From a virus: a DNA stretch of 64,000 bases. Shown here in pieces: positions 50,690-57,197 of this stretch (positions are counted from its first letter, which is position 1; each line of letters starts with the position of its first letter). A program made the position numbers and the translations under genes. Below the pieces are notes generated by a model. It was not told the DNA's origin. It searched no databases and worked only from the letters and a program-made list of their open reading frames with translations. The DNA is taken from the IMG/VR virus record IMGVR_UViG_3300042691_053485, positions 64,001 to 128,000 of that record. The stretch is one strand, 5' to 3'.

Positions 50690-52120
50690 ATGAAACAAGA
50701 ACAAACATTAGCCATTTTTGGCAAGGATTATGAAATTAAAGTCCTTAAACAAATCATTGGTGAATTACACAATCGAGGAAATGGAATAGTCAGAGATGAT
50801 AAATTTGGTAGAAAACTTATTACTAAAATAGGAGTTGAGCATTTTGAACATAAAATTGCACAGTCAATTATTGTTTTCATTAAACAGTACTTTCAGAAAT
50901 ACACTAAGATACCATTTTTTGACACACTGAAGGGCATTTTCCAACAAAATTTTGGAAATGACAAGCGAATATCCAATGAGTTTGAATTAGAGCTTTATAT
51001 CCAATATTTGAAAGATATAGAGTCAGTCTCCCAAGATGACAAAGAATGGGTCAGAGAGAATGCTGTCAACTTCATCAATACAAAAAATCTTGAAAGAGCA
51101 ATTCTAAAATCATACAATGAAACTATCCTAAAGGGAAAATTCGAAGATTACCCTAAGATTGCTGAAGAACTAATGAAAGCAATTGTTCAAGCTAATGACC
51201 TTTCAGACATTGAAGCCTTTGTTAGTGGGGATTATCGACACTTGGACGAAAAAGAACGGATTCCTATACCAACAGGAATTGAGGGTCTTGATACAGTATT
51301 GAATGGAGGGTTAGCCAGAAAGGAATTTGCATTATTTATTGCACCATCAGGTGTTGGAAAGACTACATTTGCGACATATATCGCTAATAATGCTGCTAGA
51401 TTAGGTCTAAATGTACTACAAATATTCTTTGAAGACACAGAAGAGCAAATTAAAATGAAGCATATTGCGAAAATGATTTCAAAACCTATTAACTTTTCTT
51501 CAAATAAAAAGAATCGGAAAGTTGTTGTTTCTGAATCCGATAAAAAGCTTCAAAAAATAAGAGACCAAGGTGGCTGCTTAGTTTTGCAACCTATGGATTC
51601 GACAGAAACAACCGTTAGCGATATCCGCAACTTGATTATCCGCGCAAAAGAGGATGGAGTATATTTCCCCGACACAGGTGAAAAGAAAAGTGTTGAATTT
51701 GACCTTGTACTGATTGACTATATTGACTGTATCAAGCCAAAACAACGCTACCAACAAACCTGGGAGGGACAAACTGAAGTTACAAGAGAACTTGAAAAAC
51801 TTGCTAAAGAACTAAACTATGCTTCTTGGAATTTCACGCAAGGAACAAAGGCATCGTTAAATGCAAAAGTTGTAACAGGTGAACAAATGGGTGGTGACTA
51901 TGGAAAGTACAAGGTTGCACACTTCGTTATGTCTGTTGCAAAGGGGTTAGGGGAATTTAATAACAAGGCTAACATCGCGATTTTGAAAAATCGCATGGGT
52001 TCTTCAGGATTACTTTTTGAAGACTGTCTTTTCGACAATGCAAATATGATTATCGAATTCAATGACCAAGTTCAACTTTCTAAAGAAGCAGTAAATGATG
52101 TTTATGCTACAAATGGATAA
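50690..52120 (+). CDS. dnaB: DnaB/gp41-like replicative helicase
   Basis: PTGIEGLD..LNGGL....APSGVGKTT, LIDYIDC, ILKNRMG. Confidence 0.9.
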   Translation: MKQEQTLAIFGKDYEIKVLKQIIGELHNRGNGIVRDDKFGRKLITKIGVEHFEHKIAQSIIVFIKQYFQKYTKIPFFDTLKGIFQQNFGNDKRISNEFELELYIQYLKDIESVSQDDKEWVRENAVNFINTKNLERAILKSYNETILKGKFEDYPKIAEELMKAIVQANDLSDIEAFVSGDYRHLDEKERIPIPTGIEGLDTVLNGGLARKEFALFIAPSGVGKTTFATYIANNAARLGLNVLQIFFEDTEEQIKMKHIAKMISKPINFSSNKKNRKVVVSESDKKLQKIRDQGGCLVLQPMDSTETTVSDIRNLIIRAKEDGVYFPDTGEKKSVEFDLVLIDYIDCIKPKQRYQQTWEGQTEVTRELEKLAKELNYASWNFTQGTKASLNAKVVTGEQMGGDYGKYKVAHFVMSVAKGLGEFNNKANIAILKNRMGSSGLLFEDCLFDNANMIIEFNDQVQLSKEAVNDVYATNG

Positions 52121-52184
52121 TTGAAAGAAATGTGATAATTATATAAACCCATATTTGGGAACAAAAAAAAATAAATGAAAAAAA

Positions 52185-54047
52185 ATGGATACATCACAAA
52201 AAATTTTATCAGAAATTACGGTTTTCATGAAGTACTCTAAGTACTTGCCTGAATTGAACAGACGAGAAACATGGGAAGAACTCGTTTATCGGAATGCAGA
52301 AATGCACAAAAAGAAATATCCCGAACTTTCAAAAGAAATTTCCAAAGTCTATGAAGATTTCGTTATTACAAAGAAAGTTTTACCATCTATGCGTTCGATG
52401 CAGTTTGGAGGTAAACCTATCGAAGTGAGCCCAAACAGAATCTACAATTGCTGCTTCTTACCAATTGACCACATATCATCGTTTTCTGAAACAATGTTTC
52501 TATTACTTGGTGGAACAGGAGTTGGTTATTCAGTTCAAAAACATTCTGTCGAAAAATTACCAACTATCAAAAAGCCAAATTCTAATAGAAAGAGAAGATT
52601 TTTAATCTCTGATAGTATTGAGGGTTGGGCTGATGCGATTAAAATGCTAATGAAAAGCTATTTTGGTGTTGTTTCATCTACAATTGATTTTGACTATTCG
52701 GACATCCGACCTAAAGGGGCTAGGCTTGTAACTTCAGGCGGAAAAGCACCTGGACCGCAACCATTGAAAGATTGTATCCATAACATAAAAAAAATCCTCG
52801 ACGCAAAGGAAGATGGTCAAAAGCTTTCAACAATAGAGGTACATGATATTATCTGCTTCATCGCAGATTCAGTACTTGCAGGTGGTATCCGAAGAGCTGC
52901 GCTAATTTCGCTGTTTAGTGCAGATGATGAGGATATGATTTCTTGTAAATCCGGAAATTGGTGGGAATTAAACCCCCAAAGAGGTCGTGCAAATAACTCA
53001 GCAGTTCTCTTGAGAGATAGAATTTCTAAAGAATTTTTTATGAATCTTTGGAATCGTATTGAAAGCTCAAAAGCAGGAGAGCCTGGTATCTACTTTTCAA
53101 ATGATAAAACCCTCGGCACAAACCCTTGTTGTGAAATTTCTTTGCGACCATACCAATTTTGCAACCTTTGTGAGGTAAATGTTTCGGATGTGACCTCACA
53201 AGAAGAATTAAATGAGCGAGTTAAAGCTGCGGCATTTATAGGAACTCTTCAAGCTGGATATACAGACTTCCACTATCTTAGAGAAATTTGGAAAAAAACA
53301 ACAGAAGAGGAAGCATTGATTGGCATCGGTATGACAGGTATCGCTTCAGGAGCAGTCTTGAATCTTTCATTAAGTGAAGCTGCTGAAGAAGTAAAGAAAG
53401 AAAACCAAAGAATTGCAAGCTTCATTGGAATAAATTCTGCGGCACGAATGACTTGCGTAAAACCCGCAGGGACAACATCCGCAACATTAGGCGTAAGTTC
53501 AGGTATTCACGCGTGGCATGCCCCTTACTATATTCGTAGAATTCGTGTTGGCAAGAATGAATCGATTTACAAATATCTTGTGGAAAATCATCCATCTTTA
53601 ATTGAAGATGAATATTTCCGCCCTCATGATACAGCGGTAATATCTATCCCTCAACGAGCTCCACAAAATGCAATTTTAAGAACAGAAAGTGCCATTGAAC
53701 TTTTAGAAAGGGTTAAACGCTTTTCTTTGGAATGGATAAAACCAGGTCATGTAAGTGGTAAAAATACACATAACGTATCTGCTACCATTACTATAAAAGA
53801 TGGAGAATGGGAAGAAGTTGGCGAATGGATGTGGGAAAATAAAGAACACTATAATGGGCTATCCGTCCTCCCATTCGCAGACCACACTTACAAACAAGCA
53901 CCATTTGAAGATTGCACGGAAGAGCAATATAACAATCTTGCAAGCAACCTGCATGAAATAGACCTATCAAATGTCATAGAATTTGATGATGATACAAATT
54001 TGATGGGTGAAATTGCATGTTCAGGCGGAAATTGTGAGGTAAAATAG
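52185..54047 (+). CDS. nrdJ: Class II (B12-dependent) monomeric ribonucleotide reductase
   Basis: PSMRSMQFGG, YNCCF, GGIRRAA, TNPCCEI, CVKPAGTTS, C-terminal CSGGNC; no NrdB in the window. Confidence 0.92.
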   Translation: MDTSQKILSEITVFMKYSKYLPELNRRETWEELVYRNAEMHKKKYPELSKEISKVYEDFVITKKVLPSMRSMQFGGKPIEVSPNRIYNCCFLPIDHISSFSETMFLLLGGTGVGYSVQKHSVEKLPTIKKPNSNRKRRFLISDSIEGWADAIKMLMKSYFGVVSSTIDFDYSDIRPKGARLVTSGGKAPGPQPLKDCIHNIKKILDAKEDGQKLSTIEVHDIICFIADSVLAGGIRRAALISLFSADDEDMISCKSGNWWELNPQRGRANNSAVLLRDRISKEFFMNLWNRIESSKAGEPGIYFSNDKTLGTNPCCEISLRPYQFCNLCEVNVSDVTSQEELNERVKAAAFIGTLQAGYTDFHYLREIWKKTTEEEALIGIGMTGIASGAVLNLSLSEAAEEVKKENQRIASFIGINSAARMTCVKPAGTTSATLGVSSGIHAWHAPYYIRRIRVGKNESIYKYLVENHPSLIEDEYFRPHDTAVISIPQRAPQNAILRTESAIELLERVKRFSLEWIKPGHVSGKNTHNVSATITIKDGEWEEVGEWMWENKEHYNGLSVLPFADHTYKQAPFEDCTEEQYNNLASNLHEIDLSNVIEFDDDTNLMGEIACSGGNCEVK

Positions 54048-54374
<327 letters not shown>

Positions 54375-54424: not shown

Positions 54425-55051
54425 ATGGCAGGTTCAAAACCAAACAATTTCCCTTTAAAAACCCCAATTGATGGGACAGAAGAAGTTTATACGCAAACTT
54501 CAAATGTTAATAATAAATTTACAGTGAATCAAATCGCAGAGTTCGTCGTGTCTCAAATCTCTGGCGATACGGATGCTATTTACACTGAAACTATAACACA
54601 AATATCATCTACGGAAATTAGCTTTCTTGGGTCGAATCCAGTCTCATCATCCCTTGTACTATCAGGTAATAATTTTTTAGAGGGACAATATGAAGTTATA
54701 TATCAAGCCGGAAATTTGGGATTTGATATTTTAAGTGGTGGTGCAAATCCAAACGGTATTATTCATTTAATTGCATATACTGCCAATACATTTTCGGGGA
54801 ATGCACTTTTAGATGGTTTTTTATTCATTGCCACTATGAGTTGTATGGCATTTACAGCTAAAGCAGTAGTTAACTCAAATATTGGAGTAAATCTTTTTGC
54901 ATCAAATGTAATATCTGATGTCGCAAGACATTTCCCAAATGGAACTGTAAAGTTCATCATGGTTGACGAAACATTTACACCGATTGATATTTTGGGTGGA
55001 AATGGGGAGTTAAAGGTAACATTGAAAACCCAAGTGAAGTCCTATAATTAG
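54425..55051 (+). CDS. Probable virion fibre/decoration protein
   Basis: Late motif upstream; fibre-anchor-like N-terminus (NFP.KTPIDGTEE), beta-rich. Confidence 0.45.
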   Translation: MAGSKPNNFPLKTPIDGTEEVYTQTSNVNNKFTVNQIAEFVVSQISGDTDAIYTETITQISSTEISFLGSNPVSSSLVLSGNNFLEGQYEVIYQAGNLGFDILSGGANPNGIIHLIAYTANTFSGNALLDGFLFIATMSCMAFTAKAVVNSNIGVNLFASNVISDVARHFPNGTVKFIMVDETFTPIDILGGNGELKVTLKTQVKSYN

Positions 55052-55073: not shown

Positions 55074-55116
55074 AAAAGAGGCTTATCTATCTAAAGAAGA
55101 TGGATAAGCCTCTTTT
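55074..55116. terminator. Bidirectional terminator
   Basis: AAAAGAGGCTTATC...GATAAGCCTCTTTT. Confidence 0.8.
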
Positions 55117-55143
55117 TATGGCGGTTAGCAGATAGTTATATGC
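55117..55143 (+). other. attC-like half site (array left boundary)
   Basis: Ends in GTTATATGC (55135-55143), the exact complement of GCATATAAC at 55929. Confidence 0.55.
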
Positions 55144-55218
55144 AATGCTACGTTTGTGCTTCGTATTAAGTTTTATTATAATATTCTTTTTGTTTTATTT
55201 TTTTCCCACCACACAAAT

Positions 55219-55812
55219 TTAATTATCTTTAATTTCACCAGTTATAATAATTGAATTGGGATTTATAACAACAAATTCTTCTGTGTATCTATTTTCATCT
55301 ACCAAAATAATATCGTAACCTTTTGATTTCACTTCATTAGATAAATATGGGTCAGTCATACCACTACTCGAATTATATCTATAAATTTTAGCATTTGGTT
55401 TTATTTTAGCTGTGACTAAACGACCTTCTTTTGTTGAGTTTAACTGTTTACCGACATTCTGAAAATCTTTTAATTTTACAAATGTCAAATCATATAAATC
55501 TTTATGTTCTTGTGTTCCGTATTTACTATTTTTAAACTTTTTTTCAGTTTTTTCATATTCTTCATAAGCATCATTATATTCCTTATTTAATTTTTTAACC
55601 GCATCTATTCTATATTGATGTGCTTGTGATTTTGAACGTGTAAAATATATACCCTTACCCCAATCGGAATATTGAATCAAACCTGATTTTTCAATATCAA
55701 ATTCATCAAAATTGTTATTTGTTCCGTGATATAATGTTATATTTGTAAAATTATCAACTTGTTCATTAAAATATTCACGTATAGTAGTTGCTATGAATTT
55801 TCTTAGTTCCAT
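55219..55812 (-). CDS. ADP-ribosyltransferase-like protein (H-Y-E type)
   Basis: LYHGT..FDEFD, GKGIYFT, GYDII..., EEFVVINP; leader MELRKFIATTIREYFNE. Confidence 0.7.
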   Translation of the reverse strand: MELRKFIATTIREYFNEQVDNFTNITLYHGTNNNFDEFDIEKSGLIQYSDWGKGIYFTRSKSQAHQYRIDAVKKLNKEYNDAYEEYEKTEKKFKNSKYGTQEHKDLYDLTFVKLKDFQNVGKQLNSTKEGRLVTAKIKPNAKIYRYNSSSGMTDPYLSNEVKSKGYDIILVDENRYTEEFVVINPNSIIITGEIKDN

Positions 55813-55836
55813 ATTATTAAATAGTTTTATTCTATA

Positions 55837-55844
55837 TATAAATA
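55837..55844 (-). promoter_or_regulatory. TATTTATA motif inside the ART cassette
   Basis: Exact motif 25 nt upstream of 55812. Confidence 0.55.
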
Positions 55845-55928
55845 TTCAAATTTTAAATTTCCATCCCACAAAAAATAAAACAAAAAGGCTCATCTCTCGT
55901 ATTAAAGTTTGTAGGTTAAATCCGCACA

Positions 55929-56028
55929 GCATATAACAAGGTGTATAAGAAAGTTTGCTATAAAGTTATACGTATAATTTGAAAATTTGTTACAAGCAAA
56001 CCTTCTCATACACCCATCCGTTACCTGC
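55929..56028 (+). other. attC-like site A (100 bp)
   Basis: GCATATAAC-AA-GGTGTATAAGAAAGTTTGC ... GCAAACCTTCTCATACACC-CATCC-GTTACCTGC. Confidence 0.75.
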
Positions 56029-56047
56029 AAGTGCTACGATACTGCTA

Positions 56048-56758
56048 CTATTGAACATTTGTGGGAGAAAATTTAAAAAGTTTTTCAGTCTTATTAACTT
56101 TCTGTTTTGGATTTGTTTTACTTATCTCTTTTTGCCAAATACACTCAAAATCACTTGGGGCGTTATATTCGCTAATAAAAACATTATGCCCTTCTTTGCT
56201 TTTTTTCCTACACCAATCCCAAAAAATGTCACTATTAAAATGTTCTTTATATCTTTTATTTTTTAATTGATATGGTGGGTCGCAATAAATAATACATCTA
56301 CCTTCTGTTTTAATATCCAAGTAATCAGAAAATATAAATGTAATATCGGATATATCTTGTTTTAAAAACCCTCTTATACCTTCATCAAAATAATTTCTAT
56401 AATTACCTCCTTTTGTTTCGCTTCCTCCACCATAGGCACTAAACCAATTACCATTATAAGAACCTAAAACACCTATCAAACCAACATACCATTTAGGGTA
56501 ATCGTTTTTATTAGCTTTTACATCTTGCCAATGTTCTTTTGTAATATCTCTATTGTCTATCAATCCACCATTTTGGATATAGTGATACAACTCTATTATG
56601 TATTCATTATTATCATAGCCTATTCTTTTACCATCAACTTTGTCAATAGTGTTTGCACCCCCAACAAAAGGTTCAACCCAAGTTTCTTCAGTCCTACCGT
56701 TTAACATTATAGGTAATATATATTTTGCTATTCTGTTTTTACTTCCTGTATATTTCAT
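56048..56758 (-). CDS. Dam-like N6-adenine DNA methyltransferase
   Basis: MKYTGSKNRIAK, VEPFVGGAN, IYCDPPY. Confidence 0.9.
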   Translation of the reverse strand: MKYTGSKNRIAKYILPIMLNGRTEETWVEPFVGGANTIDKVDGKRIGYDNNEYIIELYHYIQNGGLIDNRDITKEHWQDVKANKNDYPKWYVGLIGVLGSYNGNWFSAYGGGSETKGGNYRNYFDEGIRGFLKQDISDITFIFSDYLDIKTEGRCIIYCDPPYQLKNKRYKEHFNSDIFWDWCRKKSKEGHNVFISEYNAPSDFECIWQKEISKTNPKQKVNKTEKLFKFSPTNVQ

Positions 56759-56821
56759 ACTAAAACTTTTTAAATTTTCTATTCGTTTTCAAATCAAAAT
56801 CCTGCTAAATAAACCGCACCA

Positions 56822-56879
56822 GCAGGTAACACGTGCTATACGGCATTAAAACGACCGCATAGCACCATACGTTATATGT
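56822..56879 (+). other. attC-like site B (58 bp)
   Basis: GCAGGTAAC-AC-GTGCTATACGG ... CCGCATAGCAC-CATAC-GTTATATGT. Confidence 0.78.
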
Positions 56880-56898
56880 AAGTGTTCCATAGTTTGAA

Positions 56899-56926
56899 CT
56901 GCGTTTATCTGCGAACCGTTATAGGT
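56899..56926 (+). other. attC-like half site C
   Basis: CTGCGTTTATCTGCGAACC-GTTATAGGT; partner arm absent. Confidence 0.45.
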
Positions 56927-56930
56927 AATG

Positions 56931-57197
56931 CTAACTTTTATTTAAGTTGAGCCAAAGCGCGATAAATGTTTCGCGTTCCATTTGACACACTTCATTACCA
57001 TCAATATGTTTTCGATTTTCGAATATTTCCATCACTCCGCCCCCAGTAAAATACACCGAATATCGTTTCCAAGCACTATCGCCGTGAATTTTTCCAACTC
57101 TTTCAACCTTTCGTAAATCAATTATGTCCCCACAAATGTTCACAATTGGGTTTGATTTGTTCACTTCCTCAATGTTTTTTAATTTTTCAGCTTCCAT
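56931..57197 (-). CDS. Hypothetical protein
   Basis: 88 aa; its stop abuts half site C. Confidence 0.7.
   Translation of the reverse strand: MEAEKLKNIEEVNKSNPIVNICGDIIDLRKVERVGKIHGDSAWKRYSVYFTGGGVMEIFENRKHIDGNEVCQMERETFIALWLNLNKS

Follow-up and report, generated by a model that had tools for sequence, protein, structure and literature searches.

Positions 55117 to 56926 of a 64,000-nucleotide stretch of viral DNA (hereafter the window; positions 64,001 to 128,000 of IMG/VR record IMGVR_UViG_3300042691_053485, on a contig of 184.5 kb) hold two genes, each joined to a hairpin that resembles the attC recombination site of integrons. Comparison with other phages and with bacterial chromosomes suggests, with a probability that we put at about 0.7, that this locus is a small, recombinase-less array from a large family of integron-like cassettes in Bacteroidota phages and chromosomes. 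The locus consists of two intact cassettes and one decayed one, with both genes on the minus strand. The cargo is an orphan Dam methylase of anti-restriction type and an ADP-ribosyltransferase with a short N-terminal leader. The features that define the two intact cassettes are listed here, with site sequences written in the sense of the genes.

55136..56020, minus strand: ADP-ribosyltransferase (ART) cassette, comprising the site A hairpin, 5' untranslated region (UTR), open reading frame (ORF) and 3' UTR, bounded at both ends by TAA|C on the sense strand
55929..56028, minus strand: site A, attC-like hairpin of the ~88-nt class; GCAGGTAAC-GGATG-20-nt stem with two G.T-35-nt loop-stem-TT-GTTATATGC
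55219..55812, minus strand: ART ORF, 197 aa; PF18760 ART-PolyVal (E 1.2e-9) and PF13151; N-terminal leader MELRKFIATTIREYFNEQ
55135..55143, minus strand: terminal core of the ART cassette, sense GCATATAAC, plus strand GTTATATGC; predicted crossover point G|TT at 55135/55136
56021..56871, minus strand: methyltransferase (MTase) cassette, comprising the site B hairpin, 5' UTR, ORF and 3' end
56822..56879, minus strand: site B, attC-like hairpin belonging to the 48-nt class, whose loop, TCGTTTTAATG, does not vary in the family; ACATATAAC-GTATG-11-nt stem with one G.T-loop-stem-GT-GTTACCTGC
56048..56758, minus strand: MTase ORF, 236 aa, orphan Dam-like N6-adenine DNA methyltransferase; PF02086 (E 6e-14)

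Hairpin sites and cores in the window

Sites A and B, 100 and 58 nt in total length, share one geometry, which on the plus strand reads TAAC, 2 nt, stem, loop, stem, 5 nt, GTTA. The arms of site A are 20 nt long (55940-59 and 55995-56014), are 90% complementary and enclose a 35-nt loop; those of site B are 11 nt long with one mismatch and enclose 11 nt. All three arm mismatches in the two sites are A.C on the plus strand, that is, G.T on the minus (gene-sense) strand. The 9-nt cores, again on the plus strand, are GTTATATGC (55135-55143), GCATATAAC (55929-55937) and GTTACCTGC (56020-56028) at the left end and site A, and GCAGGTAAC (56822-56830), GTTATATGT (56871-56879) and GTTATAGGT (56918-56926) at site B and the right end. 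Across each gene the cores are perfect reverse complements at 9 of 9 positions, GTTATATGC with GCATATAAC for ART and GTTACCTGC with GCAGGTAAC for MTase. Within a site, pairing between the two 9-mers ends with TAAC/GTTA, and the left core of site A matches the right core of site B at 8 of 9 positions. An earlier note, made from the letters of the window, had described the sites and cores, their common geometry, the one-sided mismatches, the pairing across cassettes rather than within sites, and the 8/9 match; all of this, coordinates and sequences included, proved correct.

The geometry and core pairing of A and B exceed chance. A hairpin scan of the whole contig found only these two sites with such geometry and quality, shuffled sequence giving 0 to 5 weak matches, and GTTAYNKGYAA, the extended core motif, is present four times in the 1.8-kb locus versus twice in the remaining 182 kb. 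A covariance model, R1, was built from 41 non-redundant sites of ~88 nt from other contigs, with the window excluded. Its two significant matches in the window, each on the minus strand, are site A, with 87.4 bits and E 4e-14, and site B, with 33.2 bits and E 9e-4. On the plus strand site A scores only 29.9 bits, and the next match in the window reaches 16 bits. Over the rest of the contig R1 found nothing better than E 0.24. Folded as DNA, site A reaches -17.4 kcal/mol in the sense orientation versus -12.6 in the antisense, and site B -11.5 versus -9.2. Model scores, G.T pattern and folding energies all agree with the note's choice of the bottom strand, here the gene-sense strand, as the one that folds.

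Three further searches are recorded here. A marginal R1 match outside the window (G000:C1:148440-148537, 22 bits, E 0.24) is probably chance. Rfam, searched at its gathering threshold, gave no family anywhere in the window. A loose TAAC...GTTA pattern, run over the genome, was dropped as uninformative, with 113 matches versus 357 in the reversed control.

The site family and the extent of the cassette

A pattern based on site A and on the sites of a related locus found more than 119 IMG/VR contigs among the matches listed, and the hairpin scanner identified arrays in 62 of the fetched loci, which carry L numbers here. The largest are L037, with 17-18 sites in 8 kb, and L032, with 12 sites in 6.2 kb. 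Sites of the same type are also found in Polaribacter phage P12002L and in Bacteroidota chromosomes. The statistics that follow cover 227 sites in 70 loci, with 153 neighbouring pairs. On the sense strand a site consists of 5 variable nt, TAAC, a 5-nt spacer (mostly GGTTG), stem, loop, stem, a 1-3-nt spacer (mostly TT), GTTA and another 5 variable nt; lengths are mostly 48-139 nt, with a median of 88. By this order of elements and by R1 score, sites A and B belong to the family.

The cores co-vary across genes. The variable 5-mer past GTTA pairs with the 5-mer before the next TAAC at 5 of 5 positions in 76 of the 153 neighbouring pairs and at 4 of 5 in 27 more, whereas the two 5-mers inside a single site match no better than chance. 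In L009, an array of four sites, every neighbouring pair of cores is complementary at 9 of 9. The stems, which are gap-free and contain no bulged (extrahelical) bases, carry a consistent polarity. Compensatory changes affect 15 of 23 stem pairs in the 41-site alignment, and two stem positions stay G.U in 40 and in 39 of the 41 sequences. These invariant pairs occupy alignment columns 10/94 and 28/80. Among stem mismatches from all sites, read on the sense strand, 288 of 345 set a 5'-arm G against a 3'-arm T, and 14 show the reverse arrangement. Class-B sites (L028, L037, L048, L097, L119, L122, L275, P12002L and site B of the window) have stems of 11-12 nt that vary by compensatory substitutions around an invariant 11-nt loop, TCGTTTTAATG, which suggests recognition by sequence. 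A variant of this class was seen in L150, where the stretch from the last gene cassette to the recombinase holds, on the sense strand, an "empty" unit, GTTATGGCA-TCGTTTTAATG-TGCCATAAC, whose stem round the class-B loop is made by its two cores; a site with a ~200-nt loop precedes it.

Where similar hairpins occur in different loci, the downstream flank alone is conserved in 19 pairs and the upstream flank alone in one. Of 102 modules, 100 have their longest ORF on the strand predicted from site geometry; this ORF begins within the upstream hairpin in 46 modules and stops at the TAA of the next TAAC in 19. Because of this flank conservation and ORF orientation, the mobile unit is best taken to be a hairpin plus its downstream gene, with TAA|C as the boundary at both ends when read in the sense direction. 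Each hairpin thus belongs to the gene that follows it, and the genes are reversed relative to classical integron cassettes, in which the ORF comes first and attC after.

Both window cassettes recur in other genomes with homology that breaks at the cores. The MTase module is 89.7% identical to L009 over 56831-56020 (T-GTTACCTGC to GCAGGTAAC), and identity ends on both sides at cores; the neighbours of the L009 module, genes and both hairpins, are unrelated to those in the window. The MTase protein is 89% identical to that of L009 and 80% identical to that of L010, and its DNA is 77% identical to the P12002L methylase. The gene is flanked by GTTACCCAC and GTGGGTAAC in L010 and by GTTACCTAT and GTAGGTAAC in P12002L, cores that differ from those of the window yet co-vary. 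In LR745206.1, a 635-kb uncultured phage, the MTase gene stands behind a class-B hairpin as it does in the window, and homology of L275 with the MTase cassette spans 56882 to 56014, class-B hairpin included.

The ART cassette recurs as a shell in four other phage contigs (L152/L122, L064, L097, L116), with homology from the TAAC of site A to GCATATAAC. Compared with the last L152 cassette, identity is 85% over a first stretch that starts at the TAAC of site A and takes in the hairpin, GTTATATGC and all of the 5' UTR, and 84% from the 3' UTR to GCATATAAC; the ORF bodies between these conserved stretches are unrelated. L064, L097 and L116 carry the ART-type shell with other cargo and have an N-terminal leader (M..LRKFIATTIREYLNEQ) in common. 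The leader (55759-55812, minus strand), both UTRs and the hairpin of the ART cassette thus accompany unrelated ORF bodies in all four contigs. The leader, which ends in (L/F)NE, may resemble the signals for capsid targeting and for cleavage by the prohead protease that T4 internal proteins and the packaged ADP-ribosyltransferase Alt carry.

Recombinases beside related arrays and competing readings

No tyrosine recombinase, serine recombinase or Y1 transposase (PF01797) was found in the 184.5-kb contig, which is ~68% complete, and tblastn with the array-linked recombinases described next detected no remnant in it (best E 0.79). For want of a recombinase in the contig, we call the array an orphan. 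Four of the five array-richest phage contigs tested have exactly one tyrosine recombinase, which immediately follows the last cassette in the same orientation. The three intact ones are 264-268 aa long and match PF00589 and PF13495; the fourth, in L151, has no in-frame ATG at its start and apparently begins at TTG. On the integron integrase model TIGR02249 the intact recombinases reach 151 bits, in a split match, versus a cut-off of 265. Their best PDB match is archaeal XerA. The alignment to VchIntIA (2a3v) stops at residue 181, from which we conclude that they are without the IntI-specific insert. Smyshlyaev et al. (2021) describe the insert as "not fully conserved" in an integron-like subgroup and say nothing further on it.

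In a Bacteroidota sample, relatives of the array-linked recombinase at E <= 1e-40 were present in 72 of 201 genomes. This is too few for a housekeeping Xer, and the matches are therefore not housekeeping Xer proteins. Two of eight chromosomal loci fetched from beside the recombinase have arrays, of three or four sites with family geometry. The recombinase gene converges on the array end in chromosomal L261 and L263, and follows the array co-directionally in phage L149-L152. A peptide-pattern scan for the recombinase in genome contigs returned two loci only; the profile search of the 201 genomes gave more. A second set of five contigs, fetched by hairpin pattern, contained no recombinase; two of these have real arrays, two have single sites, and L046 is a chance match. 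Five site-free relatives of this phage lack the recombinase as well.

It is possible to read the hairpins as RNA or expression elements, active in processing, stability or translation, with the genes shuffled by homologous or microhomology recombination and no dedicated recombinase, as proposed for T4-type promoter-stem-loop cassettes. We regard this as unlikely. The wobbles are indeed G.U on the transcribed strand, and the sense fold is the more stable one, but RNA pairing alone does not predict so strong a preference for G.T over T.G. The swapping of ORF bodies inside a conserved UTR shell would suit such shuffling, yet the breakpoints fall at invariant 4-nt cores and not in the long conserved hairpins, where homologous exchange is expected, and in 103 of 153 pairs the variable 5-mers on the two sides of a gene change together. 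That ORFs often begin in the loop and finish at the TAA of TAAC, and that each window cassette has long inverted repeats in its 5' and 3' UTRs, is in keeping with a function in the transcript; however, the sites contain no intrinsic terminator, and their sigma-70-like promoter matches do not exceed those of shuffled sequence. The recombinase is missing from many site-bearing phages, whereas one tyrosine recombinase stands at the same array end in four of five array-rich contigs and beside chromosomal arrays.

The closest known case of that kind is the promoter-early stem-loop (PeSL) mobile regulatory cassette of T4-type phages, which Arbiol et al. are said to have described in 2010. PeSL cassettes likewise place accessory phage genes in plastic regions between repeated stem-loops and are shuffled among genomes. 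They are, however, promoter-plus-terminator repeats thought to act by homologous recombination, and TAAC/GTTA cores, co-varying ends and a linked recombinase are all absent from them.

A strict cluster of attC sites lacking an integron integrase (CALIN), with sites that are substrates of a host IntI and cassettes drawn from bacterial integrons, is very doubtful. Much of the cassette footprint is there: TAAC/GTTA cores, an unpaired spacer, site lengths of 58 and 100 nt, and swapped core complementarity, R'' being complementary to R' of the preceding site at 9 of 9 for both window cassettes. Measured against the attC consensus RYYYAAC/GTTRRRY, TAAC and GTTA are invariant, but GTTATAT, GTTACCT and GTTATAG fall outside RRRY. 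The extrahelical bases that mark the bottom strand in the attC L box are absent from the family stems, which have invariant G.T wobbles instead. The rule that the ORF lies upstream of attC and antisense to the recombined strand does not hold either: the better-folding, R1-conforming strand is the coding strand, and the tie between hairpin and downstream gene reverses the genes relative to site polarity. The array-adjacent recombinases, finally, lie far under the integron-integrase cut-off and lack the insert.

Phage P12002L bears directly on this question. In a screen of 10,705 phage genomes, Qi et al. (2023; PMC9892861) counted 17 attC clusters without an integrase, among them one in P12002L with methyltransferase cassettes and with two sites in "divergent directions". 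This is, as in the window, a phage-borne, integrase-less cluster of attC-type hairpins that carries orphan DNA methyltransferase cassettes, with the same geometry and co-varying cores; the difference is that its sites were treated as ordinary integron attC served by bacterial IntI. One of them, P12002L_attC1, was called as attC by HattCI alone, a prediction that favours the attC reading, but it was also the one site among those tested for which no IntI1 junction was verified. From the primer table of that paper, P12002L_attC1 is a class-B member of the present family, with the same loop as site B.

The family also resembles sedentary chromosomal integrons, such as the Vibrio cholerae repeats. 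Both have arrays of single-gene cassettes, imperfect hairpins with TAAC...GTTA cores, outer core bases that pair across the cassette, near-identical hairpins on unrelated genes, and a tyrosine recombinase at one array end. In the present family, however, the recombinase is ~268 aa long without the IntI-specific insert, the hairpin is 5' of the gene with the coding strand folded, and the asymmetry between strands lies in G.T/A.C positions and a 5/2-nt internal loop instead of bulges. The phage recombinase, moreover, follows its array co-directionally, and the window cassettes carry long UTRs of their own.

Non-autonomous single-strand transposons of IS200/IS605 type, inserting 3' of TAAC and moved by a Y1 HUH transposase, would also combine strand-specific hairpins beside a fixed tetranucleotide with array growth by insertion next to an existing end, but this is scarcely credible, since the contig has no Y1 transposase, the array neighbour is a tyrosine recombinase instead wherever checked, and 9-nt inverted complementarity of the ends with free covariation is, to our knowledge, foreign to that family (IS608/ISDra2).

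Against this background the remaining claims of the earlier note fared unevenly. The ART unit, delimited at G|TT (55136-56020, site A included), and the MTase unit, proposed as a cassette, are borne out by their recurrence, the former in four other phage contigs with homology ending at the cores, the latter between co-varying cores in L009, L010, LR745206.1 and P12002L. The cluster is integrase-less, as stated, with no recombinase of any class found in the contig. Identification of the sites as integron attC was right as to the cassette footprint and wrong as to type, canonical attC having bulges, no invariant G.T wobbles and the opposite gene orientation. As for the host or distant tyrosine recombinase that was envisaged, the enzyme linked to arrays in relatives is not an IntI but short and Xer/IntI-like, with no IntI insert. 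As to novelty, attC clusters in phages, P12002L included, were already published in 2023. We found no published description of large arrays, reversed orientation, conserved wobbles or a linked short recombinase, and a non-IntI system appears only marginally in the literature.

Predicted mobilisation and the boundaries of the array

We give about even odds to a more specific proposal: that the family is an undescribed phage/Bacteroidota counterpart of integrons and the window array an orphan outpost of it, with an insert-less Xer/IntI-like recombinase, coding-strand sites marked by invariant G.T wobbles in place of bulges, a 5' hairpin, an expression shell brought by each cassette and, in some cassettes, leaders of capsid-targeting type. 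Phages and their hosts would use it to trade, unit by unit, anti-restriction enzymes and perhaps effectors injected from the virion. On the main reading, a cassette would be excised as a circle by the short recombinase, supplied in trans from the host chromosome or a co-infecting phage. In the circle the two variable 5-mers would pair to give a complete folded site, and re-insertion at a TAAC core would proceed through the folded single strand, by single-strand exchange as in integrons, with the G.T/A.C positions and the 5/2-nt internal loop picking the strand. The window array would have been acquired, and might still be mobilised, with an enzyme from the host or a co-infecting phage. The predicted circle junction, with the cassette end joined to its own start, is ...GCATATAA|C-GGATG-site A; the predicted deletion junction is GCAGGTAA|C-TATCTGCTAACC; and the predicted empty site, on the sense strand, is ACCTATAAC followed directly by TATCTGCTAACCGCC.

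Several observations weigh against the identification of the locus as an integron-like array, or against its being active. No close relative of this phage was found, and no empty site is therefore demonstrated. The recombinase is absent from this contig and from two other site-bearing phage records with at least four sites, including a complete genome of 325 kb that has four, and for this reason the array in this phage may equally be an inert relic. The L009 MTase module has a different hairpin on each side; hairpin and gene are therefore separable, which a single crossover point does not explain. A less frequent exchange at the second core may account for this separation, as may homologous exchange. 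The G.U pattern on the sense strand and the ORF starts in hairpin loops (46 of 102) also fit a hairpin function at the transcript level, and the case as a whole is built on comparison of sequences.

The searches for an empty site and for relatives had the following outcome. The predicted empty junction had no exact match in metagenome contigs. The flanking 208-aa gene has no relatives in IMG/VR or in metagenome contigs, and peptide patterns found no relatives of the ART protein in IMG/VR. Eighty relatives were obtained through a ribonucleotide reductase (RNR)-like gene, at 70-72% identity. Their synteny with the window is limited to three genes, and no sites were found within up to 8 kb of flank per side, so that they permit no presence/absence comparison at the empty site.

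Integrons serve as the model for stockpiling and swapping of single genes in bacteria, and are defined by an IntI with its insert and by attC sites with bulged bases. The widespread phage-borne system proposed here would keep the cassette logic with the enzyme, strand marks and gene orientation changed. If the recombinase were shown to work, it would have direct bearing on the origin of integrons from Xer-type recombinases, it would explain the exchange of methyltransferases and other counter-defence or host-takeover genes among Bacteroidota phages, and integron finders that require IntI would be seen to overlook a whole class of arrays. In this phage, the ART and Dam genes would be marked as exchangeable accessories of recent acquisition.

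The remaining features of the locus concern the ends of the array and the interior of the cassettes.

55117..55134, minus strand: stretch directly past the last TAAC core, sense TATCTGCTAACCGCCATA, complementary to 56906-56923; in relatives the recombinase gene is at the same position
56872..56918, minus strand: decayed third unit, 47 nt, with the typical 5' spacer (C-GGTTC) and end core ACATATAAC retained and the hairpin apparently lost, judging from family geometry
56906..56926, minus strand: upstream array boundary, with core sense CCTATAAC, plus strand GTTATAGG, and an arm complementary to 55117-55134
55186..55203 (3'-UTR arm) and 55870..55887 (5'-UTR arm): inner inverted repeat of the ART cassette, pairing 18/18, kept in L152, L064 and L097
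56066..56084 (inside the 3' end of the ORF) and 56762..56780 (immediately before the ATG): the corresponding inner inverted repeat in the MTase cassette, pairing 19/19, kept in L009

The array is bracketed by an 18-nt inverted repeat (55117-55134 versus 56906-56923, 83% complementary) that abuts both outermost cores. The two half sites of the earlier note are thus present as sequence (55117-55143 and 56906-56926), with mutually complementary arms, but they depart from standard half-site geometry. Positions 55117-55134 may be a remnant of an insertion (attI-like) site. The inner inverted repeats of 18-19 nt could pair at long range, either in the mRNA or in single-stranded DNA.

No further cassette was found upstream of 56926, and no core matching ACCTATAAC is plausibly placed up to 60200. 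The array is flanked by a convergent plus-strand gene (54425-55051) at one end and by a minus-strand gene (56931-57197) at the other. The last TAAC of the array is followed by 15 nt and then by the terminator of the convergent gene, a terminator-like hairpin at 55074-55116 that closes it. Farther out, window positions 50690-54374 contain a 476-aa gene, the RNR-like gene (620 aa, with matches to PF02867 and PF21995) and a 105-aa gene. This block is common to 432 IMG/VR contigs, with the RNR-like protein at 70-72% identity and with complete genomes of 246-321 kb among them, and its synteny breaks off right past the 105-aa gene.

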